Shown here: positions 23,026 to 63,740 of the stretch, in pieces
Layout of the letters: the number at the start of each line of letters is the position of its first letter
Numbering within the stretch: position 1 is the stretch's first letter
From: an uncultured bacterium
GTDB lineage: Bacteria > Patescibacteriota > Minisyncoccia > UBA6257 > 2-01-FULL-56-20
DNA length: 64,000 nucleotides
NCBI GenBank assembly: GCA_963768625.1
Contig: CAVYIK010000003.1
Coordinates: 454,715 to 518,714 of the forward strand
Reading direction: 5' to 3'
The notes under the pieces: model-generated
Database searches by the model: none
Told to the model about the DNA's origin: nothing
The model's input: only the letters and a program-made list of their open reading frames with translations
Position numbers and translations under genes: made by a program

Positions 23026-23027
23026 AA

Positions 23028-24269: not shown

Positions 24270-24275
24270 GTTTTC

Positions 24276-24938: not shown

Positions 24939-24942
24939 CCGA

Positions 24943-25410: not shown

Positions 25411-25426
25411 AACGCTTCCATTTCGT

Positions 25427-25870: not shown

Positions 25871-26086
25871 ATCCTCTCATGTGTACCAGGACGCCCCATT
25901 TTATTGGCTTATTTCAGCCATTTTTCGGCTCTGTAGGATTTCTCCCCATCGGAAAATATAGGATTCAAGAGAGTTCCAACTTTTCTGAACCATGTCCACA
26001 TCGCGGGAATTGAACTCGAACTCGGGAGTAGGCGGCTTTACAGATTTTCACCTTCCTGTTATATAAGTTCCTAGGAGGGGCCAGAC

Positions 26087-26317: not shown

Positions 26318-26337
26318 AGGGTTTGTATTCGCTTGAC

Positions 26338-26374
26338 GGCCGGGTCCGCGTCTCTGGGTCCGGCCCTTTTTATT
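26338..26374 (+). terminator. Rho-independent terminator after the RHH gene
   Basis: GC-rich stem ggccgggtcc...gggtccggcc followed by TTTTTATTT. Confidence 0.6.
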
Positions 26375-26407
26375 TCCGATAACGCACCATGGACTCTACT
26401 TGCAGCT

Positions 26408-36449: not shown

Positions 36450-36468
36450 GCTTTGATGATATCACGGA

Positions 36469-36494
36469 CAAAAAACTCCCGCATCTGCGGGAGT
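36469..36494 (-). terminator. Rho-independent terminator downstream of rnj
   Basis: 8-bp stem actcccgc/gcgggagt with loop atct, followed on the minus strand by TTTTTT. Confidence 0.6.
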
Positions 36495-36520
36495 TTCGGC
36501 GACTAGCGAGTGCCCGGCGG

Positions 36521-41849: not shown

Positions 41850-41862
41850 GGAGGGCACGATT

Positions 41863-43089: not shown

Positions 43090-43093
43090 CCAA

Positions 43094-43138
43094 GAGGGCG
43101 TTGCGCAGTTTGTTTGTTTGCGCAACGCCTCTTTTTTA
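43094..43138 (+). terminator. Rho-independent terminator after the Nudix-kinase gene
   Basis: Stem gagggcgttgcgca / tgcgcaacgcctc (one bulge) followed by TTTTTT. Confidence 0.65.
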
Positions 43139-43150
43139 TATTCGCCCAAG

Positions 43151-48375: not shown

Positions 48376-49356
48376 ATGCCGCAAAAAACGGCTCTCGTCT
48401 GCGGGGCGGGCGGGTTCATCGGGGCCCATTTGGCAAGACGCCTTGTGCGGGAGGGCTATTGGGTGCGTAGCACCGACCGGAAAGAGTCGCAGTTCAACAA
48501 GAGCAAAGCCGCTGATTTTATGAACGGCGACCTTTCGGACCAGGTGTTCGCGAAGAAGGTATTTGACCGTCCGTTTGACGAGGTCTATCAGCTTGCCGCC
48601 GACATGGGCGGTGCGGGATACGTCTTCACGGGCGAACATGACGCCGACATTTTGCAGACCTCCGCGGCGGTGAACCTGAACGTTTTGAGATACGGCTGCG
48701 CGAGCGGGATGAAAAAGATATTTTATTCTTCTTCCGCCTGTATCTATCCCGCGTACAACCAGGAAGACCCGGACAACCCCAAGTGTTCCGAAGATTCCGC
48801 CTATCCCGCGGCGCCGGACAGCGAATATGGATGGGAAAAACTTTTCAGCGAGCACCTTTATCTTGCGATGCACCGGAACTACGGCCTTGCGGTGCGCGTC
48901 GCCCGCTTCCACAACATATTCGGTCCCGAAGGCACATGGAACGGCGGCCGCGAAAAAGCGCCCGCCGCGATGTGCCGAAAAGTGGCGGAGACGCCGGATG
49001 GCGGGACGATCGAGATGTGGGGCGACGGCAAACAGACGCGTTCATTCCTCTACGTTGATGAATGCCTGGAGGGCGTGCGCCGGCTCATGGATTCCGATTT
49101 CATAGGGCCGGTGAACATCGGCTCGGAGGAAATGGTCACGATCAACCAGCTTGCGGAAATGACGATGAAGATCGCCGGCAAAAAGCTTTCAATAAAACAC
49201 GTTCCGGGCCCGCTCGGTGTGCGCGGGCGCAATTCCGACAATCGGCTGATCCGCGAGAAGCTCGGTTGGGCGCCGAAGGTATCGCTTGAAGACGGCATGC
49301 GTAAGACGTATGCGTGGATCCGCGAACAGGCCGAGAAGGCTGGCACGGCGAAGTAG
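48376..49356 (+). CDS. GDP-mannose 3,5-epimerase-like SDR
   Basis: GAGGFIGAHL, SSACIYP, and the long block FHNIFGPEGTWNGGREKAPAAMCRK...MWGDGKQTRSF..DEC.EG closely resembles plant/bacterial GME. Confidence 0.7.
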   Translation: MPQKTALVCGAGGFIGAHLARRLVREGYWVRSTDRKESQFNKSKAADFMNGDLSDQVFAKKVFDRPFDEVYQLAADMGGAGYVFTGEHDADILQTSAAVNLNVLRYGCASGMKKIFYSSSACIYPAYNQEDPDNPKCSEDSAYPAAPDSEYGWEKLFSEHLYLAMHRNYGLAVRVARFHNIFGPEGTWNGGREKAPAAMCRKVAETPDGGTIEMWGDGKQTRSFLYVDECLEGVRRLMDSDFIGPVNIGSEEMVTINQLAEMTMKIAGKKLSIKHVPGPLGVRGRNSDNRLIREKLGWAPKVSLEDGMRKTYAWIREQAEKAGTAK

Positions 49357-49357
49357 C

Positions 49358-50254
49358 ATGGTCACTGTTTTTTTGCGCGGCGGACTGGGCAACCAGATGT
49401 TCCAATACGCGGCCGGCCTGTCCCTCGCGAAGAAGAACAGGGCAGAGCTCGTCCTCGACACCGTCCATCTCCGCGACCGTTTCCCGCGGCCCCGGTTTTC
49501 CTACCGCGCCTACGACCTCGGCGTGTTCGCGATCGAGCCGCAGTTCACGGCGCTCTCGCGCCTCGCGGATAAGTTTCCCGTTCCCGGCGCCTGGCTTGGC
49601 CTCGACCTTTTGGGCATCGCTTTCGGGCACGCGTTTGGGGCGAAAAAGGTGATCCGCGAAAAGAGCAGCGCATTCGATCCGTCCGTGCTCGCCGCGCGTG
49701 GGAAAGTCCTTTTATATGGCAGGTGGCAGAGCGAAAAATATTTTGCGGACGTAAAAGACGATGTCCGCGCCGCATTCCGGTTCCGCCAGCCGCTCGCGGG
49801 CGATGCGAAAGCGCTCGCGGGGAAGATCGCGGGTTGCAATTCCGTTTCGCTCCATGTGCGCCGCGGCGATTACGCCGCCTTCAAGAACGTGGAGCAATTG
49901 ATGGGCAAGACCGACCTCGCTTACTACAACCGCGCGGCGAACTATATCGCCGGGCGTGCGAAAGACCCGCAGTTCTTCGTCTTTTCGGACGACATCGCAT
50001 GGTGTCGCGCGAATCTCAAGCTTCCGTTCCCGGCAACCTACGTGGACGATGCTTCGCGCGGCCCGAAAGCCGCGTTCCACCTCGAACTTATGTCGCGGTG
50101 CAAGCACAATATAATTACGAACAGCACCTTTTCCTGGTGGGGCGCATGGCTGAATGCGAATCCGGGAAAGATGGTCATCACGCCCGCGCATTGGTATGCC
50201 GATAAGACGAAGATCAACGAGGATATCATTCCCGCCGGTTGGGTGAAAATCTGA
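49358..50254 (+). CDS. Glycosyltransferase family 11 (alpha-1,2-fucosyltransferase-like)
   Basis: GGLGNQMFQYAAG, SLHVRRGDY and NSTFSWWGAWLN motifs. The start is taken at MVTVFL within ORF 49286. Confidence 0.8.
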   Translation: MVTVFLRGGLGNQMFQYAAGLSLAKKNRAELVLDTVHLRDRFPRPRFSYRAYDLGVFAIEPQFTALSRLADKFPVPGAWLGLDLLGIAFGHAFGAKKVIREKSSAFDPSVLAARGKVLLYGRWQSEKYFADVKDDVRAAFRFRQPLAGDAKALAGKIAGCNSVSLHVRRGDYAAFKNVEQLMGKTDLAYYNRAANYIAGRAKDPQFFVFSDDIAWCRANLKLPFPATYVDDASRGPKAAFHLELMSRCKHNIITNSTFSWWGAWLNANPGKMVITPAHWYADKTKINEDIIPAGWVKI

Positions 50255-50290
50255 CGCGGGAATTGACTTACCGTTTGTTTTGCAGCATTA

Positions 50291-50862
50291 TTGATAGCGA
50301 TGATAAAAGAATACCTTGCTGAATCGCAGGCGCTTGCGGGGGTGCTCGCTAAAGATGCTACGCTTCCGCAACGATTCGAAAAAACCGTGGACACGGTTGT
50401 TACTGCGTTCAAGACGGGCCATAAGGTGCTTGCGGCAGGGAATGGCGGGAGCGCCGCGGACGCCCAGCACTTTTCCGCAGAGTTTGTGGGGAAGTATAAG
50501 ATGGTTCGCGATGCGTATCCCGCGATCGCGCTTACGACAGATGTTTCCGTCCTCACCGCGTGGGCAAACGATGTCGCGTTCGAAGGTATTTTTGAGCGCC
50601 AGATAGAGGGGCTTGGGAAGAAGGGAGATGTGTTTTTTGGGATTTCAACAAGCGGCAATTCAAAGAATGTCATAGCGGCTCTCGCAAAGGCGAAGAGCAT
50701 GGGGCTCACGACCGTTGCCATGCTTGGTGGTGATGGCGGGCAGACAAAGGGGATGGCCGACATCGAATTTATCATCCCTTCAAAAAACACCCCCGAATCC
50801 AGGAGATGCACAAGCTTTTTCTCCACAGCATTGCCGAGGAGGCCGAGAAGCGAATGTCATGA
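50291..50862 (+). CDS. gmhA: SIS-domain sedoheptulose-7-phosphate isomerase (GmhA-like), one 3' frameshift
   Basis: [18 protein letters not shown] and [12 protein letters not shown]. The C-terminal [15 protein letters not shown] appears only after a shift at the C5 run 50790-50794. Its stop overlaps the gmd ATG. Confidence 0.75.
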
Positions 50863-51890
50863 ACACAACGAATAAAAAAGCCCTTATCACCGGCGTCACT
50901 GGCCAGGATGGGAGCTATCTCGCGGAGCTTTTGCTTAAAAAAGGATACGAAGTGCACGGGATCATCCGGCGCTCTTCATCGTTGAATACCGCCCGTCTCG
51001 ATCATATTTACGTTGACCCTCGCGAGAGAGGAGCGCGGCTCTATACCCATTATGGCGATCTCGCCGATGCGAATACGATCCGGAAGTTGATCTACGCGAT
51101 CAAGCCGGACGAGATCTATAATCTTGGGGCGCAATCCCACGTACGCGTTTCGTTCGACATCCCGGAATATACCGGTAATATAACTGGCCTTGGGACCCTT
51201 CGCATCCTTGAGGCCATAAAGGATTACGAGGCGGATACCGGTAATAAGGTAAGGTTTTATCAGGCCTCGAGCTCCGAAATGTTCGGCGCTGCGCCGCCGC
51301 CGCAGAATGAAGAGACAAAATTCTATCCGCGGAGTCCCTATGGCACGGCAAAAGTATTTGCATTTGATACGACGCGTAACTATCGCGAGGCCTACGGTAT
51401 TTTTGCGGCGAACGGCATACTTTTCAACCACGAATCGGAGCGCCGCGGCCATAATTTCGTTACGCGGAAAGTTACGACTGGTATCGCGCGGATCCTCGCG
51501 GGATTGGACAAAAAGCTCTATCTTGGCAATTTGAGCGCGCACCGCGATTGGGGCTACGCTCCCGAATACGTTGAAGCGATCTGGCTGATGCTTCAGCAGC
51601 CGGAACCAGAGGACTATGTGATTGGCAGCGGAGTGTCGCACAGCGTGGAAGATTTTGTCTCCACCGCTTTTAAGCAGGTAGGCATCACCGATTGGAAAAA
51701 GTATGTTGAGATAGATTCGCGCTATTACCGCCCTACGGAGGTGGAACGTCTCGTGGCTGATGCTACGAAGGCAAAGAGGAAATTGCATTGGGAGCCGAAG
51801 ACCGGATTCGAAGCATTAGTAAAAAAGATGCTCAAGCATGATCTTGAAAATCACGGCCTCCGTGACTACGCGGAGAAAATAATATTATAA
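50859..51890 (+). CDS. gmd: GDP-mannose 4,6-dehydratase
   Basis: [52 protein letters not shown] and FNHESERRG. Confidence 0.9.
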
Positions 51891-51893
51891 GAC

Positions 51894-53168
51894 ATGAGCC
51901 AGGATCTTATTGCACTTAGAGAAACCTGCCGGGTCTGCGGCGGGAAAAACCTTGACCCAATTCTTTCGCTCGGGAACCTCTATGTCTCCGATTTTTTGGG
52001 CGAGAGCGAAGGCGACCGCTCTTTTAAGGCACCGCTTGACGTCGTATTTTGCAATGCCGAGAAAGGCGGATGTGGATTATTGCAGCTTCAGCATACTGTT
52101 TCCCATGAAGCGATGTACCGGAATTATTGGTATCGCTCGGGCGTGAATAAAACAATGACCGATGCGCTGCACGGCATCGCGCGCACCGTCGAATCTCTTG
52201 CCGGACTGCACACCGGCGATTACGTGATCGATATCGGCGCCAATGATGGGACGCTGCTCCGCGGCTACGGGGTGAGCGATCTCAATCGGATCGGTTTTGA
52301 GCCTGCGAGGAATCTTGCGCAGTACAACAAAGCAGGGACGACCGAGATCATCAATGATTTCTTCAATTATGGAGCATGGGCTAAAAAATTTCCCGGAAAG
52401 AAAGCTAAAGCGATAACCGCTATCGCCATGTTCTACGACCTTGAAGATCCGAACCTTTTCGTTTCGGAAGTGGGGCGGTGCCTGGACGATGACGGAGTGT
52501 TCATCATTCAAATGAGCTATCTCCCGCTCATGCTTTCCACGAACGAGCTGGGGAATATTTGCCATGAACACATTGAATATTACTCCCTCTTTTCGCTTGA
52601 GAACCTCCTCGGGCGAAATGGGCTTGAGGTTTTTGACGTTGAGCTGAATGATGTGAACGGCGGCAGTTTCCGCACTTATATCCGGCACAAGGGGAAAGGG
52701 GGACGCCTTTCTGCCCCTATCGGGGCTGATATACGCGTTGAAGCCTTGAGAGAATACGAAAAGAAGCTCGGCCTCGCCAGTAAGAAAGTGTACGAAGATT
52801 TCGTGCGCCGCGTAGAGGGCATAAAGAAAGAGCTGACTGCTTTTTTGGAAAAAGAGACCGCGCGCGGGAAAAAGATCCATGTCTATGGAGCATCAACGAA
52901 AGGCAACACGGTCCTCCAGTATTTCGGTATTGATCATTCGATGATCGGAGCCGCCGCCGAGCGGAATCCGGACAAGTGGGGGAAAAAGACCGTCGGCACG
53001 CTTATCCCCATCATCTCGGAGGAACAGGCGCGAAATGAAAAACCGGATTATTTCCTCGTGCTGCCGTGGCATTTTTTGAGGGAATTCCGGGCTCGCGAGC
53101 AAGAGTTTTTCAAGCGTGGAGGTAAGTTCATCGTGCCGTTCCCCGAGCTCAAGATCATTGAACGCTAA
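51894..53168 (+). CDS. NDP-hexose C-methyltransferase (TylCIII-like), copy 1
   Basis: N-terminal Zn-ribbon CRVCGGKNL, SAM fold VIDIGANDGTLL, and a C-methyltransferase C-terminal domain (HVYGASTKGNTVLQYFG). Confidence 0.7.
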   Translation: MSQDLIALRETCRVCGGKNLDPILSLGNLYVSDFLGESEGDRSFKAPLDVVFCNAEKGGCGLLQLQHTVSHEAMYRNYWYRSGVNKTMTDALHGIARTVESLAGLHTGDYVIDIGANDGTLLRGYGVSDLNRIGFEPARNLAQYNKAGTTEIINDFFNYGAWAKKFPGKKAKAITAIAMFYDLEDPNLFVSEVGRCLDDDGVFIIQMSYLPLMLSTNELGNICHEHIEYYSLFSLENLLGRNGLEVFDVELNDVNGGSFRTYIRHKGKGGRLSAPIGADIRVEALREYEKKLGLASKKVYEDFVRRVEGIKKELTAFLEKETARGKKIHVYGASTKGNTVLQYFGIDHSMIGAAAERNPDKWGKKTVGTLIPIISEEQARNEKPDYFLVLPWHFLREFRAREQEFFKRGGKFIVPFPELKIIER

Positions 53169-54238
53169 TGAGCGATACTCAAGTTATCGTCGTGGGTGCC
53201 GATTGGCACGGCGAGTGGGCCAAGGACGTTTATCTCGCTTTCCGTGAGTCCGGCGCGGATGCGGAGATAATTTATACGAATACGCTCTTCGGGGGGATGG
53301 GCAGCAGCAAGGTCGCCGCGAAGGCGCGCGTGGAGATTATCAAGCAATTTTTCAGGAAACGCATGCCTTCCCTTTTTGATTTCGTAAGAGAGGCGCGGCG
53401 GCGGATGTCGGAGCGGACGGTGCTCAAAAAGATCGCATCGTTCCACAAACCGGGGCGCAAGCTGCTGGTTCTTTTTATCTGGACGCCGCCCGGCGTCTCG
53501 CTTCTTAAGGCCCTCGGGGCGAACAAGGAGATAGCGCTTGTGCTCTGGCAGGGTGAAGCGCCTTCGCGCAATGCCCAGTGGCCCCTTTCCTTCCCTTATT
53601 TCCACCATGTTTTTTCCGTGGATGAAGAGTGGCTCCCGCTTTTCGATGAGGAAACGAGGAAAAAGGCGACCTACTTGCCCCTCTCTTCGAGTTCAGCGAC
53701 GCACTTCCCGCTTTCCAGGGAGGCGCAGGATCAGAAATTTGTTTCCGATATCGCCTTCGTCGGGCATTATCGGCCCGAGCGCGCGGAAAAACTGTCAGCC
53801 CTCAAAGATAACGATCTTAAAATTTATGGCTATTGGTGGGAGGCCGGGGCGAGCCAGTTTCCCTGGCTTAAGGAGAAATATTGCGGACCCGTATCGGATA
53901 AAGATGCAAACCAGGTGTTCAATGGAGGAAAGATCCAGATCGGCCGCCTATCAACGCCTGTCGCGTACGGCAATACTATCACCCAGCGGGTTTTCGACGC
54001 CGCCCTTGCCGGGAGTTTCCAATTGAGCGAGTACTCGCCAGCCATTGAAAAGATATTCGGCAAGTCGGTCGTTATGTTCCGCGACGGCAAGGAACTTAAA
54101 AAACTTGCGGATTATTACCTTCTTCATGCCGAAGAGCGGCAGCGGCTCGCTGCTCAAGCGCACGCTATCGCCCTCAAGGACCATACTTACGCGAGCCGCA
54201 CAAAAACAATCATGAAGGTTTCTCACGCAATGCGATGA
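53168..54238 (+). CDS. CgeB-like glycosyltransferase (DUF3880 + Glyco_trans_1_2), copy 1
   Basis: IAFVGHYRPERAEKL...TQRVFDAALAGSFQLSEY...LLHAEERQRLAAQAHAIALKDHTYASR. Confidence 0.55.
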   Translation: MSDTQVIVVGADWHGEWAKDVYLAFRESGADAEIIYTNTLFGGMGSSKVAAKARVEIIKQFFRKRMPSLFDFVREARRRMSERTVLKKIASFHKPGRKLLVLFIWTPPGVSLLKALGANKEIALVLWQGEAPSRNAQWPLSFPYFHHVFSVDEEWLPLFDEETRKKATYLPLSSSSATHFPLSREAQDQKFVSDIAFVGHYRPERAEKLSALKDNDLKIYGYWWEAGASQFPWLKEKYCGPVSDKDANQVFNGGKIQIGRLSTPVAYGNTITQRVFDAALAGSFQLSEYSPAIEKIFGKSVVMFRDGKELKKLADYYLLHAEERQRLAAQAHAIALKDHTYASRTKTIMKVSHAMR

Positions 54239-55329
54239 AGATATTGCTCATAACTAATAAATACGTATACAATCCGCGGACGCTCTCGGTGCTCCGGCGG
54301 GCCGACGGCATCTATTCAATGGAAGATTCGCTTCGGGAAACGCTCGGCGCGCGCGGGCACTCGATGGACGTTTTTTATATTGACGAAGCCGTGAGTTCGC
54401 ACGGACTCGATGCCGCGCGTAAAGAATTATGGGACCACATTTGCAAGACGGTGCCCGATGTGTGCATCCCGATCGCGGTCGACGAATATATCTACGGCAA
54501 AGAACTTTTTCGGAAGATGCGCGACCAGAATTTTACCCAGTTCGTCTACCTCGGCGAAGATGATGCGTGGACGTGGGCGCGGCAGGGGCGCCATCTCGGA
54601 AAATATTTTCAGTGGATCGTAACGTACGACGGGAGAGCGGTTGCGAAATATAAAAGCATGGGTTGCCGTAATGTTGCACATCACCAGCCCGGCATTGATA
54701 TAAGCATTTTCAGAAAGCTTCAAGGAAGGCCGAAAAACATCGATGTGAGTTTTATAGGGCTTTGGAGCAAGCCGCGGGAAAAGGTTATCCAGTACCTTCG
54801 GGCGGCGGGCGTGGACGTGTTCGTGAGAGGAAGGGGATGGCCGGAAGGGCCCATTGAGAGCGACGAAGGAATGGTCGACATCATTAACCGGAGCAAGATA
54901 TGCCTTTCTCTCAATACGCCGGCGTTCTATTTCGGCTGGCGGCCGATCGCGAGCTTGTTCTTCCGCCGCGCGAGCTTGGGCGAAGGAGGTTTCCGCGTCA
55001 AGCTTGATATCTGGAACTTTTTCGGCAATCTGCGCCTGTGGCTCGACAAAAGAAATGCGCAGGTAAAGTCGCGACACTTTGACGTGCCTGCTTGCGGGAC
55101 CATGGAAATGACTAAAGACGCCGACGATCTTAGGGATTATTACAAACTCGGAGAAGAGATCGTCGTTTACAAAGATAACAAGGACCTCGTGGAGAAGATA
55201 AAGTATTATCTCGCGCATCCCGAAGAGCGGGAGGCGATAGCGAAGCGTGGCTACGAGCGCACGATACGCGAGCACTCGAAGAAGAAAAGATACGAGGATA
55301 TCTTTCGAATGATCGGGAAACCGCTGTAG
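54235..55329 (+). CDS. CgeB-like glycosyltransferase (Glyco_trans_1_2), copy 2
   Basis: DVSFIGLW...SRHFDVPACGTMEMT...YLAHPEEREAIAKRGYERTIREHS. Overlaps the upstream gene by 4 nt. Confidence 0.55.
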   Translation: MKILLITNKYVYNPRTLSVLRRADGIYSMEDSLRETLGARGHSMDVFYIDEAVSSHGLDAARKELWDHICKTVPDVCIPIAVDEYIYGKELFRKMRDQNFTQFVYLGEDDAWTWARQGRHLGKYFQWIVTYDGRAVAKYKSMGCRNVAHHQPGIDISIFRKLQGRPKNIDVSFIGLWSKPREKVIQYLRAAGVDVFVRGRGWPEGPIESDEGMVDIINRSKICLSLNTPAFYFGWRPIASLFFRRASLGEGGFRVKLDIWNFFGNLRLWLDKRNAQVKSRHFDVPACGTMEMTKDADDLRDYYKLGEEIVVYKDNKDLVEKIKYYLAHPEEREAIAKRGYERTIREHSKKKRYEDIFRMIGKPL

Positions 55330-55379: not shown

Positions 55380-56642
55380 GTGCAAAATAACCGTCCCCGG
55401 AACCTCGTCTGTGATCCAGCCCAGCTGATCAAGCGGTGCCGCGTATGCGATTCGAAGAACTTGGAGATGGCCATCGATCTTGGCTTCCAGCCGTGGTGCA
55501 ATCATTTTTTAAAAAAAGAGGAGATCGGCACGGAGCCGTTCTATCCTTTACGCGTCGTTTTCTGCATGGATTGTCGGACGCCGCAGCTTGATTATACGGT
55601 TCCGAAGGAGACCATGTTCGGCCACCACACCTACCTGTCCGGCGTTACGAAAACGTTGAGCGACCATTTTAAATCCGTAGCCGAGAAGGTTAACGAAAAG
55701 TTTTTCAAAAATGCGCCAAAGAAATCGGTGCTTGATATTGGCTCGAATGACGGTACGCAGCTGAAATACTTCAAACAGCTTGGGTATGATGTGTTGGGGA
55801 TTGACCCAGCGGAGACGCCCGCACGGCTTGCGAATGAAGCAGGCATACCGACGGTCCACGATTTCTTCAATCTGGATTCTGCGAAAAAGCTAGGCCGGAA
55901 ATTCGACGTGATCAATGCCGCGGGCGTATTCTTTCACCTCGAAGAATTGCATTCCGTCTGCGATGCCATAAAACAGGTCCTCGCGGATGACGGTGTTTTC
56001 GTCGTCCAATTTTTGTACATGAAGAGCATCGTGGAAAATATGGCGTTTGACCAGATCTACCACGAGCATTTGCTGTACTACAATCTTAAAAACATCGAGA
56101 CGCTTTTGAACCGGCACGGACTTTCTTTATTTGACGCGTATCTCGCGCCCATCCACGGCGGCTCTATGATCGCCTACGCCACCCACAAGGGGCGAAAGAG
56201 CCCCTCGCCCGAACTCGTCGCGTTCAGGGATGAAGAAGCGGAGCATGGAATCAACGAGCTCCCGACCTATCTGCGGTTCGCCGAAAATATAAAAAAGAGG
56301 AAGGAGGAGGTCTTGGCATACCTTCAGGATGCCAAAAAGCGGGGGAAAAGGATTTTCGGCATGGGAGCGCCGGTCAAGGGGAACACCATGCTGAATTATT
56401 TCGGGGTCGGAACCGACCATATAGAATGTTTGGTTGAGAAAAACGAATTACGCCGCGGTCTTTACGCGCCCGGGTCGCACATCCCGATCGCGATCGAAAA
56501 GGAGCTTACCGAGCTGCCGGACATTTATTACTTCCTTGCATGGAATTTCAAAAAAGAGATCTTAGCGAACAATCAATTCCTGATCGACAAAGGCGTAGAA
56601 TTCTATTTTCCCGTTGACCCGGATAAAAAGTCTGGTAGTTGA
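55380..56642 (+). CDS. NDP-hexose C-methyltransferase (TylCIII-like), copy 2
   Basis: Zn-ribbon CRVCDSKNL, SAM fold VLDIGSNDGTQL, and a C-terminal domain with IFGMGAPVKGNTMLNYFG. Paralogue of 51894-53168. Confidence 0.7.
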   Translation: MQNNRPRNLVCDPAQLIKRCRVCDSKNLEMAIDLGFQPWCNHFLKKEEIGTEPFYPLRVVFCMDCRTPQLDYTVPKETMFGHHTYLSGVTKTLSDHFKSVAEKVNEKFFKNAPKKSVLDIGSNDGTQLKYFKQLGYDVLGIDPAETPARLANEAGIPTVHDFFNLDSAKKLGRKFDVINAAGVFFHLEELHSVCDAIKQVLADDGVFVVQFLYMKSIVENMAFDQIYHEHLLYYNLKNIETLLNRHGLSLFDAYLAPIHGGSMIAYATHKGRKSPSPELVAFRDEEAEHGINELPTYLRFAENIKKRKEEVLAYLQDAKKRGKRIFGMGAPVKGNTMLNYFGVGTDHIECLVEKNELRRGLYAPGSHIPIAIEKELTELPDIYYFLAWNFKKEILANNQFLIDKGVEFYFPVDPDKKSGS

Positions 56643-56717: not shown

Positions 56718-57614
56718 ATGAAAATAATCGTAACCGGCTCGGAAAGTTTTGTCGCGCGGGAGCTTATTGCGCAATGCCTTAAAGAAGGAATTGAGGTTTT
56801 CGGGTTCGATTTCGCGAAGAACAGCGATTTGCCCTACGAATTCCAAAAAGGCGATATCAACGATCCGAAGATCGGCGATCTTTTCCCGGAGGGGGCGGAC
56901 GCGCTTGTGCACCTTGCTGCTCTCTCGCGCGATAAAGACTGCGCCGGCAGGGCGTATGAGTGTTTTTCGACGAACGTGCTGGGGACGCTGAATCTCGTGC
57001 GCGCGGCTAAAACTCGCGGCGTGAAGCAGTTCATTTTTTCTTCAAGCGACTGGGTGTACGAGAAATTCGCACCCGGCGAGGTGAAAGACGAGACCTCGCT
57101 TATTGACATCGCGGGGCACACTTCCGAGTACGCGCTCTCAAAGCTTGTGAGTGAAGCGAATTTGCGTCAGGAGTACTTGCGGGGGCAGTCCATGGGGATT
57201 ACCGTCCTTCGTTTCGCCATCATCTACGGGCCGCGCCCGCTCACGGTGGCGGGTTCCGTCGAGAGGATCATGAGCGAAGCGAAGACAAGCGAGGCCATAA
57301 CGTTTTCCGGGTCGCGCAAATCGGGACGTTGTTATATGCACGTGCATGATATCGCGCGCGGCATCCGTGCGGCGCTAGGAAGAAAGGATTTTCAGATCGT
57401 GAATCTTGCCGGCGACGAATTTGTCACGCTTGAAGATATCGTCCGCATAACCGAGAAGCTGTGCGGCAAGACAAAGCCGGCCGAGATCATCGAGAAGGAT
57501 CCTGCGGCTGTTGTTGCGAGGAATATATCGAACAAAAAAGCCAAAGAGATGCTTCACTGGAAGCCAGAGATCAATATAGAAGCCGGCTTCAAAACGATCC
57601 TGCCCTTTATCTAA
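56718..57614 (+). CDS. NAD-dependent sugar epimerase/dehydratase (SDR)
   Basis: Rossmann motif IIVTGSESFVAREL and the catalytic YALSK triad region. Confidence 0.65.
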   Translation: MKIIVTGSESFVARELIAQCLKEGIEVFGFDFAKNSDLPYEFQKGDINDPKIGDLFPEGADALVHLAALSRDKDCAGRAYECFSTNVLGTLNLVRAAKTRGVKQFIFSSSDWVYEKFAPGEVKDETSLIDIAGHTSEYALSKLVSEANLRQEYLRGQSMGITVLRFAIIYGPRPLTVAGSVERIMSEAKTSEAITFSGSRKSGRCYMHVHDIARGIRAALGRKDFQIVNLAGDEFVTLEDIVRITEKLCGKTKPAEIIEKDPAAVVARNISNKKAKEMLHWKPEINIEAGFKTILPFI

Positions 57615-58547
57615 ATGCCAACCGGCTCTGATACGAAGAAAAAAATTGCCGGGGAAGTGATCCGCCTGCGCGTGAGCCAGATGATCGTGAATGAAGAATA
57701 CAAGGCGGGGAAATTTAAGGTTCCGATCCATCTCGCCTTGGGGCACGAAGCTATTGCCGTTGCCGTAAGCGAGATGATGGAGCAAGGAGACAGCCTGCTC
57801 CCGACGCACCGCAACATCGCCTACAATCTCGCCCGCGCCGGCAGGTTGCGGCCCATTCTTGACGAATATCTTTTGAAGTCGACGGGCTTGAACGGGGCGC
57901 GCTCCGGGTCTATGAACCTCTTGAACCCGGAGAGGGGGATCCTTTACGCTTCAAGCATCCTCGGAAACCAGTTTTCCGTGGCGACGGGGATCGCGATGGC
58001 AGATAAAATATCGGGGAAAAAGAATATCGTGATCGTCATGGGAGGAGATGGTTCGATGGAGGAAGGTTCGTTCTATGAAAGCATGCTTATGGCGCGGAGC
58101 CTTGAATTGCCGGTGCTTTTCGTTGTGGAAAATAACGAGTGGTCCATGGCGACCCGCATTGGTGAACGTCGTTCGCCCATCGACCTTTCACTTTTCGCCG
58201 AATCCCTGAATATCCGCTATGCCCATCTTCACGACAATGACGTCTACCGCTATATCGATACGCTAAAAGACATACGGAAAGCCGCCATCAAGAATAACGC
58301 CCCGATGTGTATTGAGGTGCGCGTCTCGACGTTGGGGGATTGGCGCATGAAGACGGAGGGGTTTCCGGAGGGAGAATTCATTAACTATCACGCCGGTCCT
58401 GCGCCCGAGGTGTCGCTTACCGAATGGCCGATCATCCGTGAGAACGACGAAGATCCCGTGTTTGCGCTGACGCGCCACATTGAGCAGTCGGTGCTTGAGG
58501 AAGACGCACGCAGGCAATTTGCGGAACTTCAAAAAGAGATCTCGTAG
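57615..58547 (+). CDS. Thiamine-diphosphate-dependent dehydrogenase E1 alpha-like subunit
   Basis: HLALGHEAIAVA...THRN and the TPP-binding motif GGDGSMEEGSFYESMLMARSLELPVLFVVENNEW. Confidence 0.75.
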   Translation: MPTGSDTKKKIAGEVIRLRVSQMIVNEEYKAGKFKVPIHLALGHEAIAVAVSEMMEQGDSLLPTHRNIAYNLARAGRLRPILDEYLLKSTGLNGARSGSMNLLNPERGILYASSILGNQFSVATGIAMADKISGKKNIVIVMGGDGSMEEGSFYESMLMARSLELPVLFVVENNEWSMATRIGERRSPIDLSLFAESLNIRYAHLHDNDVYRYIDTLKDIRKAAIKNNAPMCIEVRVSTLGDWRMKTEGFPEGEFINYHAGPAPEVSLTEWPIIRENDEDPVFALTRHIEQSVLEEDARRQFAELQKEIS

Positions 58548-58553
58548 AAAAAT

Positions 58554-59492
58554 ATGCCTAAATATCTTGAACACATAAATTCGGTTTTGAAAAAAGAGGT
58601 CGGCGCGCACGACGGGCTTGTTGTGTTCGGCCAGAACGTGAGCGCGGGTTCGCGCATCAGCGGGTTCACGAAGGGCTTTAAGGTAAAAGCGTCAGGGAAA
58701 ATAATAAATACGACGAATACGGAAAACTCGCTTGTCGGTTTTGGATTTGGCGTGATGCTCGCCGGCGGCACGTCAGCGTTCTTTATGAAGCAACTCGACT
58801 TTCTTTTCCTCGGCATAGACCAATTGGTGAATACGTATAATATTCTCCGCAATTCTCGTGAGGCCAAGGGTTCATTCACGATCCTGCCGCTTGTTGTCGA
58901 CATGGGCTATCAAGGCCCGCAATCGAGCGCAAACAATTTCGGCGACTTTTGCTCGATCGCGCGCATCCCGGGCTATGCCGTGACGAATAAGTATGATGCC
59001 GAACAGATCGTAGGGAGTCACCTCGTTTCTCCGGGATTCCGCATTATTGCTTTCAGCCAGCGGATGTTCAAGGACGAGGTCATCGATCCGGGTGTGCCCG
59101 TGCACGCCGATAGAGGTCTGAAGTTCGCGCAGTACAAAGACGGTCCCGATGCGACGATTGTTTCGTTCAATTTTTCTTTCCCGTACGCATGGAAGCTCGG
59201 CCTTGAGCTCGAAAAAGCAGGAAAGAGACCCGCGGTATTCAATGTGAACTATATGACGCCGATCGATTGGGCGCCGATTTTGGAAAGCGTAAAGAAAACA
59301 AAAAGGCTTGTCGTTCTGGACGACAGCAAGAGCGAAAATCTATCATGCTTCTCGCTTCTTGCCGAAGCGCGTGCCCTGGGCCTTAAGAAAGATATTTTTA
59401 TCAAGCGCACGCTGAATGATAATTGGCTCAACCCTGTTTCCGACGCGATGGATATCGATTACGAAGCGATCATGCGGGGGTTGGGTATCTAA
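58554..59492 (+). CDS. E1 beta-like subunit (transketolase pyrimidine-binding + C-terminal domains)
   Basis: VFGQNVSAGSRISGFTKGF, TENSLVGFGFGVMLAGG, and a C-terminal VVLDDSKSEN segment. Confidence 0.7.
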   Translation: MPKYLEHINSVLKKEVGAHDGLVVFGQNVSAGSRISGFTKGFKVKASGKIINTTNTENSLVGFGFGVMLAGGTSAFFMKQLDFLFLGIDQLVNTYNILRNSREAKGSFTILPLVVDMGYQGPQSSANNFGDFCSIARIPGYAVTNKYDAEQIVGSHLVSPGFRIIAFSQRMFKDEVIDPGVPVHADRGLKFAQYKDGPDATIVSFNFSFPYAWKLGLELEKAGKRPAVFNVNYMTPIDWAPILESVKKTKRLVVLDDSKSENLSCFSLLAEARALGLKKDIFIKRTLNDNWLNPVSDAMDIDYEAIMRGLGI

Positions 59493-59514: not shown

Positions 59515-60318
59515 ATGGGTGAAAAGAAAAAGAATCTCATTCTCGGGAAAGGCCTTATCGGGTCCCACTTGGCCGCCGTCCTCAAGGAACGGAAGGAAGA
59601 AGTTTCGGTGCTCTCCCGTGGCGACGGTCAGGATCTAAAAAGCGCCGAAAAATATTTTGACCGGTTCCAGTGGGCGGACCGGGTGTGGTTTGTGGCATGG
59701 GACGTGGGCGTCTGGAAAAAATCCACCTCGTCCGCCTACGAAAGCGAAGTTTTGGATTCCAATCTTGCGCTGTGCCGGTCTGTATTCAAGTGTCTGGAGC
59801 GGTCCGGGAAACCATTTCTTTTTGTGAGCTCGCAAGCCGCGCTCGCGCCGGATATGGTCACGCTGGGCGTTACGAAGCGGGTCGGCGAATTTTGGACGCG
59901 AATTTTGGGAGGGCATATCGCGCGGCTCTGGAACGTGTATGGCTGGGAGTTGCCCGGAGAGAAAAGCCATCTTATCCCCGACCTGGTCCACCAGGGTCTC
60001 CGGGGGAAAATTCAACTGATGACGAACGGCGAGGAAACGAGGCAGTTTTTGTATGCCCGGGATTGCGCGGAGGCTTTCGTGCACCAATTTGATATCGGCC
60101 AAAAGGAGGCGGATGTCACAAGCGGCGAATGGATTTCCGTAAAAGAGATGGCCCGACGCATCGGCCAGAAATTGAGGGCAGAAGTCGTGTTCGGGTCAAA
60201 ACCCGGCAGGCCTCCTTTCTGGATCCCAAAAACTCCGCTCGCATCATGGAAGCCGAGGTTCTCTCTGGATGAAGGGTTGGATGAGGTCATAAGAGATGCA
60301 AAGTCGAGCATTGTGTGA
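59515..60318 (+). CDS. Short NAD(P)-binding SDR (sugar reductase/epimerase-like)
   Basis: The start is taken at MGEKKKNLILGKGLIGSHL within ORF 59416. Rossmann fold. Contains ETRQFLYARDCAEAF. Confidence 0.55.
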   Translation: MGEKKKNLILGKGLIGSHLAAVLKERKEEVSVLSRGDGQDLKSAEKYFDRFQWADRVWFVAWDVGVWKKSTSSAYESEVLDSNLALCRSVFKCLERSGKPFLFVSSQAALAPDMVTLGVTKRVGEFWTRILGGHIARLWNVYGWELPGEKSHLIPDLVHQGLRGKIQLMTNGEETRQFLYARDCAEAFVHQFDIGQKEADVTSGEWISVKEMARRIGQKLRAEVVFGSKPGRPPFWIPKTPLASWKPRFSLDEGLDEVIRDAKSSIV

Positions 60319-60331: not shown

Positions 60332-60844
60332 ATGAAAATCACGGAGACAAAATTGGAGGGAGTCCTTCTCATAGAACCCGAGGTTTTCAAGGACTTCCGC
60401 GGCTCGTTCACCGAGATCTATAACGAAGATGCATATGCGAAGGCGGGGATCGCGGACCGCTTCGTTCAGGACGACATGTCACTTTCAAAAAAGAATGTCC
60501 TGCGCGGCATTCATGTCGAGAATAAGATCGCGAAGTTGGTCATGTGCGGTCACGGTCGCCTGTATTGCGTTGTCGTAAACTGCGACAAGGCATCTAAAAA
60601 GTTTGGAGCGTGGGAATCGTTCATTTTGACCGATGAAAATCGTCACCAACTTTTTATTCCTCCGAAGCATGGCACCGCATACCTCGTACTGTCCGACTGG
60701 GGAATGTTCCACTATAAACAATCGGGATATTACAATCCGGCCAATCAGGATAGTTATCGCTGGAACGATCCAAAATTCAATATTTCGTGGCCGATAGAAA
60801 ATCCGATTCTTTCCGCGCGAGACGAGGCGGGGAAGTATGTTTAG
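60332..60844 (+). CDS. RmlC-like cupin sugar-nucleotide 3,5-epimerase
   Basis: LEGVLLIEPEVFKDFRGSFTEIYN...LRGIH...FIPPKHGTAYLVLSD...YKQS.YY are the dTDP-4-dehydrorhamnose 3,5-epimerase family motifs. Confidence 0.75.
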   Translation: MKITETKLEGVLLIEPEVFKDFRGSFTEIYNEDAYAKAGIADRFVQDDMSLSKKNVLRGIHVENKIAKLVMCGHGRLYCVVVNCDKASKKFGAWESFILTDENRHQLFIPPKHGTAYLVLSDWGMFHYKQSGYYNPANQDSYRWNDPKFNISWPIENPILSARDEAGKYV

Positions 60845-60896: not shown

Positions 60897-61859
60897 ATGG
60901 CGAAACAGAATAATATCTCAAAAAAGATTTTGGTGACGGGCGGCGCCGGCTATATCGGATCGGTCTTGGTGCCCGAACTCCTGCGCGCCGGGCACGAAGT
61001 GACCGTCGTGGATAATTTTATGTACGGCCAGCATTCGTTGCTTGACGTGGCCAACATGAAGACACTCACCGTGGTCCGTGGCGATGCGCGCGATGAAGCG
61101 CTTATAAAAAAGCATATCGCCGGGAAAGACTTCATTATTCCTTTGGCATGCATCGTCGGAGCTCCGGCGTGCGATCGCGATCCGGCGAAGGCCCGCAGCA
61201 CGAACCTAGGAGCAGTCGAACTCATCCTTAAGCTCCGCACGCCGGACCAGAAGATCATTTTCCCAAATACGAACAGCGGCTATGGCCGGATGGCGGCCGG
61301 GGTCGCATTTTGCGATGAAAATAGCCCGCTTGAGCCCATTTCCCTTTACGGCAAGCTTAAGGTCCAGGCAGAAAAGGAGCTTTTGGAGGCGGGGAACGCG
61401 ATCACGCTGCGCCTCGCGACGGTGTTCGGCGCAAGCCCCCGGATGCGCATAGACCTCCTTGTGAATGATTTCGTCTATCGCGCCGTGACCGACCGATCGA
61501 ATCTTATCTTTGAAGGTCATTTCAAACGGAATTATATCCATGTGCGCGATGTCGCCCGCGCTTTCATGCACGCAATGGACCACTTTGAGACAATGAAAGA
61601 CCAGGCATACAACGTCGGCCTTTCCAGCGCGAACTTGAGCAAGCTTGAGCTTTGTGAAGAGATCAAAAAGCAGCTCCCACAGTTCGTTTTCGTGGAGTCC
61701 GAGATCGGCAAGGACCCTGACCAGCGCAACTATATCGTTTCCAATGCAAAGATAGAGGCGACCGGGTATAAGCCGATCGTCTCGCTCGCAGACGGCATCG
61801 CCGAGCTCATCAAGGCGTATCAGATCGTTCGGCGGGACCACTTTACGAATTTAGTATAG
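60897..61859 (+). CDS. NAD-dependent sugar epimerase/dehydratase (SDR)
   Basis: ILVTGGAGYIGSVLV, YGKLK catalytic motif, and NYIHVRDVARAF. ATG 60897 is preferred over TTG 60894. Confidence 0.7.
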   Translation: MAKQNNISKKILVTGGAGYIGSVLVPELLRAGHEVTVVDNFMYGQHSLLDVANMKTLTVVRGDARDEALIKKHIAGKDFIIPLACIVGAPACDRDPAKARSTNLGAVELILKLRTPDQKIIFPNTNSGYGRMAAGVAFCDENSPLEPISLYGKLKVQAEKELLEAGNAITLRLATVFGASPRMRIDLLVNDFVYRAVTDRSNLIFEGHFKRNYIHVRDVARAFMHAMDHFETMKDQAYNVGLSSANLSKLELCEEIKKQLPQFVFVESEIGKDPDQRNYIVSNAKIEATGYKPIVSLADGIAELIKAYQIVRRDHFTNLV

Positions 61860-61960: not shown

Positions 61961-62689
61961 ATGTTCATTGATGAATTGGCCTGCCTGTTACGGGAGGAGT
62001 ACGTCTATCCGAACGTCAAGCTTGGCCACGATTTTTTTCACGTGGAAAGAATGGTCTCGCGTGGTCCGGAGATTTACGACGCCTTTCCATTGTTCGACCT
62101 CAACGAATTTGCCGTAGCGGTGTGGCTGCACAACGTGGACCGCTGCCGTACTTTAGGGGCCCGGATCGTCCAGAGCGGGGGACTCCGACAGTATCTCGAT
62201 GGCCTTTTAGGGGATGACTTTCCCCGCGAGGCCAAGGAGAGGATCATCATCGCCGACATCGACCACCCGAAGAAATATGATGAGCCCGGAGACATCCCAT
62301 TGCTCACCGCGGTCCGCGTGGCAGACAAGCTGGATCGTTTCAACCCGACGCTGTTGGTGGAAGCCCCCGCTTCATGGGCGCATCTCCCCATCTTTGATCC
62401 GGAAGATCCATTCGGCTATGACGACACCGAGCCGGGCGAGCACGGCCAATCCGGCGGGGGGCACAAAAGCATCTACGAGACCTACTATCGCGTGCTTGGG
62501 TGGGTCCCGATGATGCCTGAATGGGCCCGTAAGCTCATTCCGCGCGAACATCTGCGGCTCTTCATCACTTTCCTTCGATTGCTTGGAGCCCAGGCAGCGA
62601 AGCAATTCCAGACGGATAATCTCGTCGAGAACGATATCCGCCGAGCCCTGGGCCCGTGCTATATGTGGGCGAATCGGTATATCGGTTAA
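61961..62689 (+). CDS. HD-domain-like hypothetical protein
   Basis: RBS GGGAGGAattccgaATG. H...HD-type residues (GHDFFHVERM, WLHNVDR, DIDHPKK, RVADKLDRF). Confidence 0.4.
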   Translation: MFIDELACLLREEYVYPNVKLGHDFFHVERMVSRGPEIYDAFPLFDLNEFAVAVWLHNVDRCRTLGARIVQSGGLRQYLDGLLGDDFPREAKERIIIADIDHPKKYDEPGDIPLLTAVRVADKLDRFNPTLLVEAPASWAHLPIFDPEDPFGYDDTEPGEHGQSGGGHKSIYETYYRVLGWVPMMPEWARKLIPREHLRLFITFLRLLGAQAAKQFQTDNLVENDIRRALGPCYMWANRYIG

Positions 62690-62714
62690 TTCTCGCGGGT
62701 TGGTTTTCTTCCAG

Positions 62715-62746
62715 CGCGCCGGTTGAGAAATCGGCGCGTTTTTTTT
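62715..62746 (+). terminator. Rho-independent terminator
   Basis: Stem cgcgccg/cggcgcg followed by TTTTTTTT. Confidence 0.7.
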
Positions 62747-62783: not shown

Positions 62784-63740
62784 ATGAGCGCTTATAAGCG
62801 TATTCTCGTTACGGGCGGCAGCGCTGTTGCGGGCGACGGCTTAAAAAGCGTGGTCGCGAAAGGGGAATATCCCGGCCGTGAATTTATTTTCCCGACATCC
62901 AAAGAATGTAATTTACTGGATGCCGAAGCGACGAAAAAATTCGTCGCCGATTGGAAGCCGGACGCCATCATCCATTTTGCTGCCATCTCCGGCGGCATCC
63001 AGCTTACCATTGATCATCCGGCGAGCGTCTTGCGGGACAATGTTGTGCTCAATTTCAATGTTATTGAAGCTGCGCGGCTTGCGGGCGTCAAGAAGCTCTT
63101 AATGACGCTTTCCGCCGCCATGTATCCGCTTGAAGCTCCGGTGCCGATGAAAGAAGAGTGGATCCATAAAGGGTATCCCCACGAGACAAACTATAGTTAC
63201 GCATTTGCGAAGCGACTTATGGATCCGATGGCGCGGGCTTACAAAAAAGAGTTCGGCATGAATGTCGTCGGTATCATTCCTGGGGGGATCATCGGGCCGC
63301 GTAACAACTTTGATCCAAAATTTTCAACCGCGATTCCGGGGATGATCAAGCGATTCTACGAAGATCGCGAGGGGAATGATCCGCTCATCATCTGGGGAGA
63401 TGGCACGCCGGTTCGGCAGTTCACCTCGGCTGAAGACATCGGCCGCATCGCGATGTGGTTCATCGATAATTACAATGATCCGCAGCCCCTCAATATCAGT
63501 ACCATGGAGGAGACATCCATCAAGGACGCTGCATATATGGTTGCGGAATTCCTCAAACTTGATCCAAAGCGCATAGCGTTTGACACCTCGAAACCTTCCG
63601 GGACGCCGCGCCAATCAATCGACAGTTCGAAATTCATAGCGCTCTCCGGATTTAAATATGCGCCGAGCCGGGAAGCGATAAAACAAACGGTGGAATATTT
63701 TGCGGCGAACTACCCCGACGCTAAAAAACTCCGTCTTTAA
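62784..63740 (+). CDS. fcl: GDP-L-fucose synthase-like (GDP-4-keto-6-deoxymannose 3,5-epimerase/4-reductase family)
   Basis: ILVTGGSA..G, ECNLLDAEATKKF, IHFAA.SGGI, YSYAFAKR, GPRNNFDP and IIWGDGTPVRQF parallel the E. coli Fcl layout. The start is taken at MSAYKR. Confidence 0.65.
   Translation: MSAYKRILVTGGSAVAGDGLKSVVAKGEYPGREFIFPTSKECNLLDAEATKKFVADWKPDAIIHFAAISGGIQLTIDHPASVLRDNVVLNFNVIEAARLAGVKKLLMTLSAAMYPLEAPVPMKEEWIHKGYPHETNYSYAFAKRLMDPMARAYKKEFGMNVVGIIPGGIIGPRNNFDPKFSTAIPGMIKRFYEDREGNDPLIIWGDGTPVRQFTSAEDIGRIAMWFIDNYNDPQPLNISTMEETSIKDAAYMVAEFLKLDPKRIAFDTSKPSGTPRQSIDSSKFIALSGFKYAPSREAIKQTVEYFAANYPDAKKLRL

Follow-up and report, generated by a model that had tools for sequence, protein, structure and literature searches.

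An E1-type gene pair within a sugar cluster

We analysed a 64,000-nucleotide stretch of contig CAVYIK010000003.1 from an uncultured patescibacterium (the window), in which two adjacent genes on the forward strand encode subunits resembling the E1 component of 2-oxoacid dehydrogenases, embedded among genes for sugar-nucleotide enzymes. The arginyl-tRNA synthetase of this patescibacterium shares 68–71% identity with proteins of Minisyncoccia and Paceibacterota metagenome-assembled genomes, and the contig measures 588,419 bp. The E1-alpha-like, thiamine diphosphate (ThDP) subunit (57615–58547, +; 310 aa, ATG start; Pfam E1_dh) is followed after a gap of 6 nt by the E1-beta-like subunit (58554–59492, +; 312 aa, ATG start; Transketolase_C), and the alpha ATG abuts the TAA stop codon of an upstream short-chain dehydrogenase/reductase (SDR) gene, sdrA (56718–57614). 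The original prediction, an earlier reading of this DNA, had described an alpha/beta E1-like pair between SDR genes; both open reading frames (ORFs) lie where it placed them, extended SDRs occur on both sides, and the motif it quoted, GGDGSMEEGSFYES...VVENNEW, is found in the alpha translation at residues 143–176. The GDG-X(~26)-NN ThDP/Mg motif corresponds to alpha residues 144–174.

Searches against Pfam matched the alpha subunit to E1_dh (E = 7.9e-34, 117.4 bits), with a secondary TPP_enzyme_C match of only 33.6 bits, and its top sequence match in the Protein Data Bank (PDB) was human pyruvate dehydrogenase (PDH) E1-alpha (E = 3.9e-16). The beta subunit matched Transketolase_C (E = 1.6e-8) and, weakly and under the gathering score, Transket_pyr (E = 3e-4); its top PDB sequence match was Thermus E1-beta (1UM9_B, E = 1.3e-15, spanning residues 6–260). 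An AlphaFold model of the alpha subunit built on 26 family members (predicted local distance difference test (pLDDT) score, 83.9; predicted template-modelling (TM) score, pTM, 0.87) aligned with the E1-alpha folds of branched-chain 2-oxoacid dehydrogenase (BCKDH) and PDH at TM scores of 0.72–0.80 and 17–23% identity.

Judged by architecture, the pair is a member of the heterotetramer-type E1 superfamily ('alpha-KADH2' in TEED). On the same grounds, the two-subunit pair does not have the single-chain TPP_enzyme_N/_M/_C architecture of YerE-type enzymes, nor does the alpha subunit match Transketolase_N better than E1_dh, as a split-gene transketolase would; the best transketolase model gave 29.1 bits against a cut-off of 488, compared with 117.4 bits for E1_dh.

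Distribution and phylogeny of the clade

A word-indexed search returned 991 relatives of the alpha subunit, the best 120 of which were all at least 53% identical, and a HMMER pass with the beta subunit over 1.84 billion cluster representatives gave 716 matches at E ≤ 0.001 and 92 at E ≤ 1e-30. The best of 400 plasmid-borne E1-alphas (tblastn) was 32% identical to the window alpha over most of the protein. Through a scan of one genome per GTDB species we obtained 80 loci, 56 of which encode alpha subunits with 39–80% identity to that of the window; these come from as many species-level genomes, bacterial and archaeal, spread over about 14 phyla. Patescibacteria contribute 19 of these loci, and Thaumarchaeota together with other archaea contribute 6; the further carriers are Omnitrophota, Nitrospirota, Chloroflexota, Planctomycetota, Lentisphaerota, Bacteroidota, Marinimicrobia, Acidobacteriota, Actinomycetota, Bdellovibrionota and several proteobacterial classes. 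Of the 56 genomes, that of Jiella sp. LLJ827 (locus L054) alone comes from an isolate. A Rhodospirillaceae locus (L042) carries, from position 20025 onward and about 10 kb downstream of its clade member, a second and more distant E1-alpha copy (33% identity).

Tight clustering with metabolic E1s, which the original prediction had named as part of an outcome that would tell against it, was not seen for the alpha subunit. In a neighbour-joining tree of 91 alpha sequences, which carries no support values, the window protein and its relatives formed a single long-stemmed clade, distinct both from the enzymes linked to an E2 and from another group of sugar-cluster pairs, described below. On this sequence comparison, the clade is discrete and deep-branching.

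Loss of dehydrogenase-complex features

To look for cognate E2 and E3 components, we ran tblastn with five reference proteins (four E2, one E3), which came from a Streptomyces locus and from three annotated operons on plasmids. The statement in the original prediction that no E2 or E3 lies nearby held for the entire 64-kb window, in which there was no match at E ≤ 1e-3; similarly, tblastn found neither component in any sugar-linked locus (L001–L071, L080, L082–L086; flanks of up to 10 kb per side). The same search detected E2 beside the E1 genes in 6 of the 10 most remote matches (28–31% identity) and in all 4 plasmid reference pairs. Furthermore, both subunits fell far short of the NCBIfam equivalog thresholds for PDH: alpha scored 148.6 bits where 393.85 are required, and beta 46.8 bits where 321 are required.

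We then compared active-site residues in alignments of 61 alpha and 57 beta sequences of the clade with those of 22 other E1-betas and 5 SAR11 relatives. Residues of the cofactor machinery are kept: the Asp of GDG and the second Asn of the NN motif in 61/61 alphas, the equivalent of Geobacillus alpha-His271 in 60/61 (His259 in the window), and the cofactor-activating beta-Glu59 (Geobacillus numbering; Glu57 in the window) in 57/57 betas. Changes are seen at sites connected with the second half-reaction. The position of beta-His128 is occupied by Ser in 54 and by Ala in 3 of the 57 clade betas (Ser124, in 'GPQSS', in the window), and by Ser in all 5 SAR11 relatives; His is present in 22/22 other E1-betas. 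Likewise, the His of the alpha 'GSMH' motif is replaced by Asn in 60/61 clade members (Asn101 in the window). The Tyr of E2-linked E1s, which in the Geobacillus enzyme touches the thiazole and diphosphate, is His in all clade members (His65 in the window); some other E1s also have His there. Most clade members also have about 16 extra residues ahead of alpha-His259, in the outer active-site loop, and the alpha C-terminus is shorter by about 25 residues. The clade can be told apart by three markers together: an SDR gene immediately upstream, Asn in alpha 'GSMN', and either Ser or Ala at beta-128.

Beta-His128 is reported to be conserved in all known E1s; in the Geobacillus enzyme it touches pyruvate and is proposed to donate the proton when lipoate is reductively acetylated, and the Gln variant (H128Q) retained activity with 2,6-dichlorophenolindophenol (DCPIP), which reports decarboxylation, while complex activity fell below 5% (PMC2663715). 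That the clade has given up this residue but kept the cofactor machinery would fit an enzyme that still forms the ThDP-bound carbanion and hands it to an acceptor other than lipoate; the conserved neighbouring beta-Gln123 might substitute for the lost His. Three features of complex E1s, namely a cognate E2, beta-His128 and equivalog-level scores, are missing, and the pair is almost certainly not the E1 of a dehydrogenase complex.

A conserved gene module with heptose-type genes

We clustered the ORFs of all loci, named the clusters by Pfam and NCBIfam, and counted neighbours in 57 core loci and in the subset of 30 loci of at least 18 kb. A recurrent operon emerged, whose first part comprises a nucleotidyltransferase (in some cases fused to a HAD phosphatase), a SIS protein, a GalE-like (Cj1427-like) SDR, a C-methyltransferase, a cupin and an SDR; the second part comprises a GHMP kinase, a CmcI-type methyltransferase, optionally an adh_short protein, sdrA, optionally a methyltransferase and cupin, and finally E1-alpha and E1-beta. 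The gene sdrA was present in 45/57 core loci (25/30 of the longer ones), the cupin in 41/57 (24/30), the GHMP kinase in 41/57 (26/30), a second SDR (sdrC) in 38/57 (21/30), the Cj1427-like SDR in 37/57 (23/30), the CmcI methyltransferase in 34/57 (19/30), the C-methyltransferase in 31/57 (20/30) and the SIS protein in 28/57 (18/30). At least one heptose-activation gene occurred in 45 of the 57 core loci and in 28 of the 30 longer ones.

In relatives, NCBIfam placed the kinase closest to HddA, the SIS protein to GmhA and the phosphatase part of the fusion protein to GmhB, and mannose-1-phosphate guanylyltransferase and HddC were among the top matches of its transferase part. All parts of a heptose pathway (GmhA, HddA, GmhB, HddC, the Cj1427-type SDR and the cupin) are represented among the relatives, the heptose-family matches lying under the cut-offs. 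For a planctomycete SDR (L027) only 30% identical to the Cj1427-like SDR of the window, 6VO6 was still the best structure by a wide margin; a single-sequence AlphaFold model of the window protein was too poor (pLDDT 42.6) for fold comparison. A relative with 85% identity has its GHMP kinase gene some 8 kb downstream from beta, and the corresponding spot here would be past position 64000. No conserved aldolase or other 2-oxoacid-forming gene was found in the module.

The original prediction had suggested a co-occurrence analysis with gmd, the GDP-mannose 4,6-dehydratase gene, and with C-methyltransferases. Outside the window, only L005, L013 and L024 combine the pair with a full-length gmd ortholog (≥45% identity across more than 250 residues), and L007 has a further match cut at the locus end; the GHMP kinase, by comparison, is present in 41/57. 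The C-methyltransferase was found at the frequency given above.

Genes for a B12-binding radical SAM protein and a SPASM-type radical SAM protein lie near the pair in five loci (L015, L022, L038, L046, L067), directly downstream of E1-beta in four of them. Judged from this placement, they suggest further modification of the sugar or of its branch.

The surrounding sugar cluster in the window

All genes from about 46.3 kb to the end of the window are on the + strand. The cluster is intact and was 99–100% identical in an independent short-read contig. It begins with a Wzy_C-type protein (46292–47740), an Fcl-like SDR (48376–49356) and a GT11 (fucosyltransferase family) protein (49358–50254), followed by a GmhA-like SIS protein, a putative sedoheptulose-7-phosphate isomerase (50291–50875; best NCBIfam match gmhA at 178.8 bits, cut-off 209.45), whose start is nearer 50312 going by the gene call of a relative. 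Next come gmd (50865–51890; TIGR01472, 507 bits; PDB 1N7G, E = 2e-133), a sugar C-methyltransferase paralog (51894–53168), tandem Glyco_trans_1_2 glycosyltransferases (53168–54238 and 54235–55329) and a sugar C-methyltransferase (55380–56642; Methyltransf_13/_23/_14), the one of the two paralogs that is found repeatedly beside the module in related loci. The adjoining sdrA product, an extended SDR of 298 aa, has the catalytic Ser and YxxxK conserved, and its closest structures are generic GalE/UXS-type SDRs.

Downstream of the pair lie a short SDR-like protein of the Epimerase family (extended SDR; 59515–60318, 267 aa), an RmlC-type cupin (60332–60844), annotated as a keto-sugar 3-, 5- or 3,5-epimerase and matching GDP-4-keto-heptose epimerases at about 1e-29, and the Cj1427-like SDR (60897–61859, 320 aa), which matches PDB 6VO6/6VO8 end to end (E = 3e-111). 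A conserved protein with no Pfam match (61961–62689, 242 aa) is followed by a terminator-like hairpin (62713–62740), the only convincing result of a promoter and terminator scan whose counts were not above shuffled expectation. The window closes with a GDP-L-fucose-synthase-like SDR (62784–63740; 188.7 bits to Fcl, under the cut-off) and an aldo/keto reductase that starts at 63742 and runs past the window end. The gmd gene, the two GDP-fucose-synthase-like SDRs and GT11 (48376–51890 and 62784–63740) make up an apparently complete GDP-fucose/6-deoxyhexose branch, interleaved with the heptose-type genes. On this gene content, gmd probably serves that separate branch together with the Fcl-like SDRs and GT11.

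Proposed function and alternatives

The pair is very probably an enzyme of nucleotide-sugar modification. We propose that a heterotetramer-type ThDP enzyme has departed from the 2-oxoacid dehydrogenase complexes and would act as a carboligase in nucleotide-sugar biosynthesis. By analogy with the systems compared below, we regard the specific assignment, a ThDP carboligase adding a pyruvate-derived acetyl unit to GDP-4-keto-heptose, as evenly balanced between right and wrong. In the following scheme, the choice of donor and acceptor, the carbon attacked and the SDR roles are inferences. A heptose-activation stage, of whose genes GmhA alone lies inside the window, would supply the substrate of the Cj1427-like SDR (60897–61859), which would oxidise C4 to give GDP-4-keto-heptose; the C-methyltransferase and the cupin may work on this keto sugar. 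The E1 pair would then decarboxylate pyruvate on ThDP and add the hydroxyethyl carbanion to the keto carbon, giving a tertiary alcohol bearing an acetyl branch, the carbonyl of which might be reduced by sdrA (56718–57614), as by YerF and Pau7; alternatively, sdrA would reduce the product. The resulting sugar would enter a surface glycan via the neighbouring glycosyltransferases and the Wzy-type protein.

The choice of acceptor follows from the neighbourhood counts: the GHMP kinase (41/57) and the Cj1427-like SDR (37/57), set against the rarity of gmd, make GDP-4-keto-heptose a better candidate than GDP-4-keto-6-deoxymannose. Similarly, pyruvate is the simplest donor because the module has no conserved 2-oxoacid-forming gene. 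The two-carbon transfer envisaged in the original prediction is chemically plausible, but the acceptor that it named, GDP-4-keto-6-deoxymannose, is probably wrong, as the pair travels with heptose genes.

Several points weigh against the proposed carboligase assignment. The evidence on the clade and its carriers is genomic, and the separation of the clade in the alpha tree comes without support values. The heptose-family assignments, the 6VO6 match excepted, all lie under curated cut-offs, and we assume that 6VO6 is Cj1427, with which the molecule name and the chain length agree. HddA, HddC and GmhB (heptose kinase, guanylyltransferase and phosphatase) were not found within the 64 kb, although a canonical gmd is present. 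The H128N and H128A variants of the Geobacillus enzyme were crippled in decarboxylation (PMC2663715); since beta-His128 also touches pyruvate, the Ser found at this position could mean a different donor or a different chemistry. Finally, cell-envelope branched sugars have so far been tied to YerE-type enzymes and not to E1 pairs (PMC12247030).

The best-surviving alternative, which we nevertheless consider unlikely, is that the enzyme transfers another unit or attacks another carbon: for example, a hydroxyacetyl (glycolaldehyde) unit from hydroxypyruvate as in transketolases, a unit from a longer 2-oxoacid, or attack on an exocyclic aldehyde or ketone (C6/C7), which would lengthen the chain and not branch it. 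Replacement of both substrate-side histidines (beta-His128 by Ser and the alpha 'GSMH' His by Asn), together with the loop insertion of about 16 residues, points to a changed substrate pocket; for the hydroxyacetyl branches of miharamycin and amipurimycin, split transketolases are the proposed enzymes (PMC12247030), and the B12-dependent and SPASM radical SAM genes that follow the pair in several loci hint at elaborate side-chain chemistry. However, the alpha subunit scores as E1_dh (117 bits) and at best 29 bits as a transketolase, the module has no conserved gene for hydroxypyruvate or longer 2-oxoacids, and the E1-type sugar-branching enzymes described so far are limited to C2 units from pyruvate (PMC12247030).

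Slightly less probable still is the reading of the original prediction, a carboligase whose acceptor would be GDP-4-keto-6-deoxymannose from gmd and whose product would be a C2-branched, C-methylated 6-deoxyhexose. It draws on the canonical gmd 5.7 kb upstream in a strand-coherent cluster with two C-methyltransferases, on the placement of the heptose kinase and nucleotidyltransferase outside the window, and on the acceptance of differing deoxysugars by Plm8/Plm9 (PMC4802897). Set against these are the scarcity of gmd beside the pair (three further loci and one cut match), the presence in the window of GmhA and, within a few genes downstream of the pair, the 6VO6-like dehydrogenase (third gene after E1-beta by the coordinates above, with two genes between), and the self-sufficiency of the fucose branch formed by gmd, the Fcl-like SDRs and GT11.

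An ordinary metabolic E1 (for pyruvate, a branched-chain 2-oxoacid or acetoin) lying in the sugar cluster by chance with its E2/E3 elsewhere would account for the E1 fold, the cofactor motifs and the name 'pyruvate dehydrogenase E1 component alpha subunit' given to members by the Joint Genome Institute (JGI) and NCBI pipelines, but is highly improbable in view of equivalog scores far under the cut-offs, E2 in none of about 75 sugar-linked loci yet adjacent in true metabolic loci, the loss of beta-His128, the truncated alpha C-terminal region, strict synteny with sugar genes over about 14 phyla including Patescibacteria, and a host from the Patescibacteria, which to our knowledge generally lack 2-oxoacid dehydrogenase complexes.

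Two other candidates were set aside. Bradyrhizose, a C10 sugar, was considered as the product; its published cluster is described as based on a dTDP-glucose dehydratase, and no ThDP, transketolase or dehydrogenase term was found in the paper. A retro-acyloin or transketolase-like cleavage of a 6-keto-heptose side chain was discarded, by inference, on chemical grounds: C5 bears the ring oxygen, so C5–C6 cleavage gives no aldehyde unless the ring opens.

Returning to the acetyl transfer onto GDP-4-keto-heptose, its widest form would make the SDR–E1-alpha–E1-beta triad the mark of a widespread, undescribed pathway to heptoses that bear a C2 branch and often a C-methyl group, 'higher sugars' of nine or ten carbons. 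An E1 lineage that abandoned lipoate chemistry would here have become a dedicated GDP-4-keto-heptose carboligase, and its sugars would be displayed on the cells of SAR11, Patescibacteria, ammonia-oxidising archaea and a dozen further phyla. We put this forward tentatively, as somewhat less probable than the enzymatic assignment itself.

Comparison with known systems

Published work attributes the acetylation of keto-sugar nucleotides at a branch point to E1-like pairs in the avilamycin, paulomycin, everninomicin, aldgamycin and kosinostatin pathways (PMC4753412, PMC4802897, PMC10338323, PMC12247030), the pairs of the actinomycetes being AviB1/AviB2, Plm8/Plm9 (= Pau11/Pau12), EvdU5/EvdS3, those of aldgamycin and kosinostatin, and KbDH. 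The AviB1/AviB2 precedent on which the original prediction drew is supported in the literature: the C2 branch has a published genetic basis for AviB1/B2, as for Plm8/9, and an in vitro basis on ketone analogues for KbDH (PMC4753412, PMC4802897, PMC12247030). In vitro, the kibdelomycin-pathway enzyme KbDH-alpha/beta joins pyruvate to ketones, and the branch ketone is often reduced afterwards (PMC4753412, PMC4802897, PMC10338323, PMC12247030).

Like the actinomycete E1-type pairs, the pair studied here is a two-gene unit free of E2/E3 in a nucleotide-sugar cluster that would also make the keto-sugar acceptor (here through gmd and the Cj1427-like dehydrogenase), with C-methyltransferases in the cluster and, plausibly, a dedicated adjacent ketoreductase (cf. 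Pau7). It differs in lying in a cell-surface glycan locus with Wzy and glycosyltransferases, whereas the actinomycete pairs lie in secondary-metabolite clusters; in its carriers, mostly uncultured lineages that include Patescibacteria, Thaumarchaeota, SAR11 and many more; and in the associated sugar, a predicted GDP-heptose as opposed to a dTDP/UDP deoxysugar. Set against the actinomycete pairs by description, the clade proteins are also short (310/312 aa) and carry Ser for beta-His128 and Asn for the alpha 'GSMH' His.

With YerE/YerF (yersiniose), ErwE and MygE the proposed pathway shares the addition of a ThDP-bound acyl anion to the C4 keto group of a nucleotide sugar, subsequent action of an NAD(P)H reductase and a surface polysaccharide as destination. 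YerE, however, is a single-chain flavoprotein of the acetolactate-synthase type, from the decarboxylase superfamily, acting on CDP-4-keto-3,6-dideoxyglucose, whereas the window enzyme is of the two-subunit E1 type. The complex E1s (Geobacillus 1W85/3DUF, human 1NI4, Thermus 1UM9) share its fold, ThDP/Mg motif, beta Glu and alpha outer-loop His, and differ in their E2/E3 partners, their beta-His128, their longer alpha C-terminus and the sugar context of the pair, at 17–23% identity in structural alignments.

The heptose side of the module resembles the capsular heptose pathway of Campylobacter jejuni (GmhA/HddA/GmhB/HddC, the Cj1427 C4 dehydrogenase, the Cj1430 epimerase and the Cj1428 reductase), with the same module logic and homologous parts. 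The function of Cj1427 is documented, and neither a ThDP enzyme nor a C-methyltransferase belongs to the pathways described there (PMC10680097); the 4-keto intermediate here would be caught by C–C bond formation and not simply reduced, unlike in C. jejuni. The literature searched contained no C2-branched heptose and no E1-type branching enzyme in envelope glycan synthesis, and searches for heptose with ThDP or a C-methyltransferase returned nothing relevant. The clade with its diagnostic substitutions, the heptose-pathway link and the envelope-glycan setting in mostly uncultured bacteria and archaea appear to be new.

These comparisons bear on genome annotation, since the pipeline name 'pyruvate dehydrogenase E1', carried in hundreds of genomes, is a label of energy metabolism; metabolic reconstructions of Patescibacteria, Thaumarchaeota and SAR11 could thereby wrongly credit them with pyruvate oxidation. 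From the module of 10–13 genes, conserved between groups as distant as archaea and Proteobacteria, one would expect its carriers to display a new branched heptose on their surfaces, and Jiella sp. LLJ827, as a cultured carrier, makes this prediction testable. Furthermore, ketone-accepting ThDP enzymes for chiral tertiary alcohols are sought as biocatalysts (PMC12247030); KbDH is the only E1-type example studied in vitro, and the clade adds a large and very different sequence space, besides offering a natural experiment at two active-site histidines.

A second group of sugar-cluster E1 pairs

A distinct second group of E1 alpha/beta pairs also lies in sugar clusters, its flanks likewise free of E2; we observed it in Prochlorococcus (L062, L064, L071), Leptospira (L065), Saganbacteria (L068), Elusimicrobia (L080) and two further loci (L069, L070). 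This group retains beta-His128 and the alpha 'GSMH' His; its pairs often adjoin a DegT-type aminotransferase or a gmd-like SDR, and two pairs each are present in L068 and L080. A homology search from the Bacillota member (L070) gave at least 8000 relatives, which were unnamed or generically named metagenome proteins with no recognisable natural-product enzyme among them. The second group may be closer to the antibiotic-pathway enzymes. A Streptomyces match from the plasmid tblastn search (L087) has an E2 homolog directly downstream and therefore served only as a metabolic reference.

Other features of the window

A phage-like island (20782–27427), in which the GC content falls to 0.45–0.49, lies beside the transfer-messenger RNA (tmRNA) gene (20782–21090), the 3' end of which is overlapped by a serine recombinase gene (21002–22600, −; 532 aa). 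The island also holds a PG_binding protein (23316–24269), a small terminase (24943–25410, −), a Schlafen/AlbA_2 protein (26408–27427, −) and a LOOT RNA (23152–23267, 93.8 bits); no direct repeat of at least 16 nt was found flanking it.

Several housekeeping ORFs are partial (3552–4325; 9002–9784; 15610–16740; 36462–38460), among them the N-terminal part only of CTP synthase, a lone Beta-Casp domain and the C-terminal half of a ClpB-like ATPase; RNase J is split into a Lactamase_B ORF (37684–38460, −) and a beta-CASP ORF (36462–37694, −). These could be assembly indel errors, or real gene decay or splitting.

Upstream of RNase Y, the interval 41046–44545 contains an inositol-monophosphatase-family gene (41046–41849), a gene combining an AAA_33/CPT-type kinase domain with a weak partial NUDIX match (41755–43089), and a gene for a 489-aa protein with no Pfam match (43076–44545). 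An isoleucyl-tRNA-synthetase-like protein of 1154 aa (32002–35466) carries a histidine-phosphatase domain (His_Phos_1, residues 488–656, E = 7e-21) that splits its class I catalytic domain into two halves.

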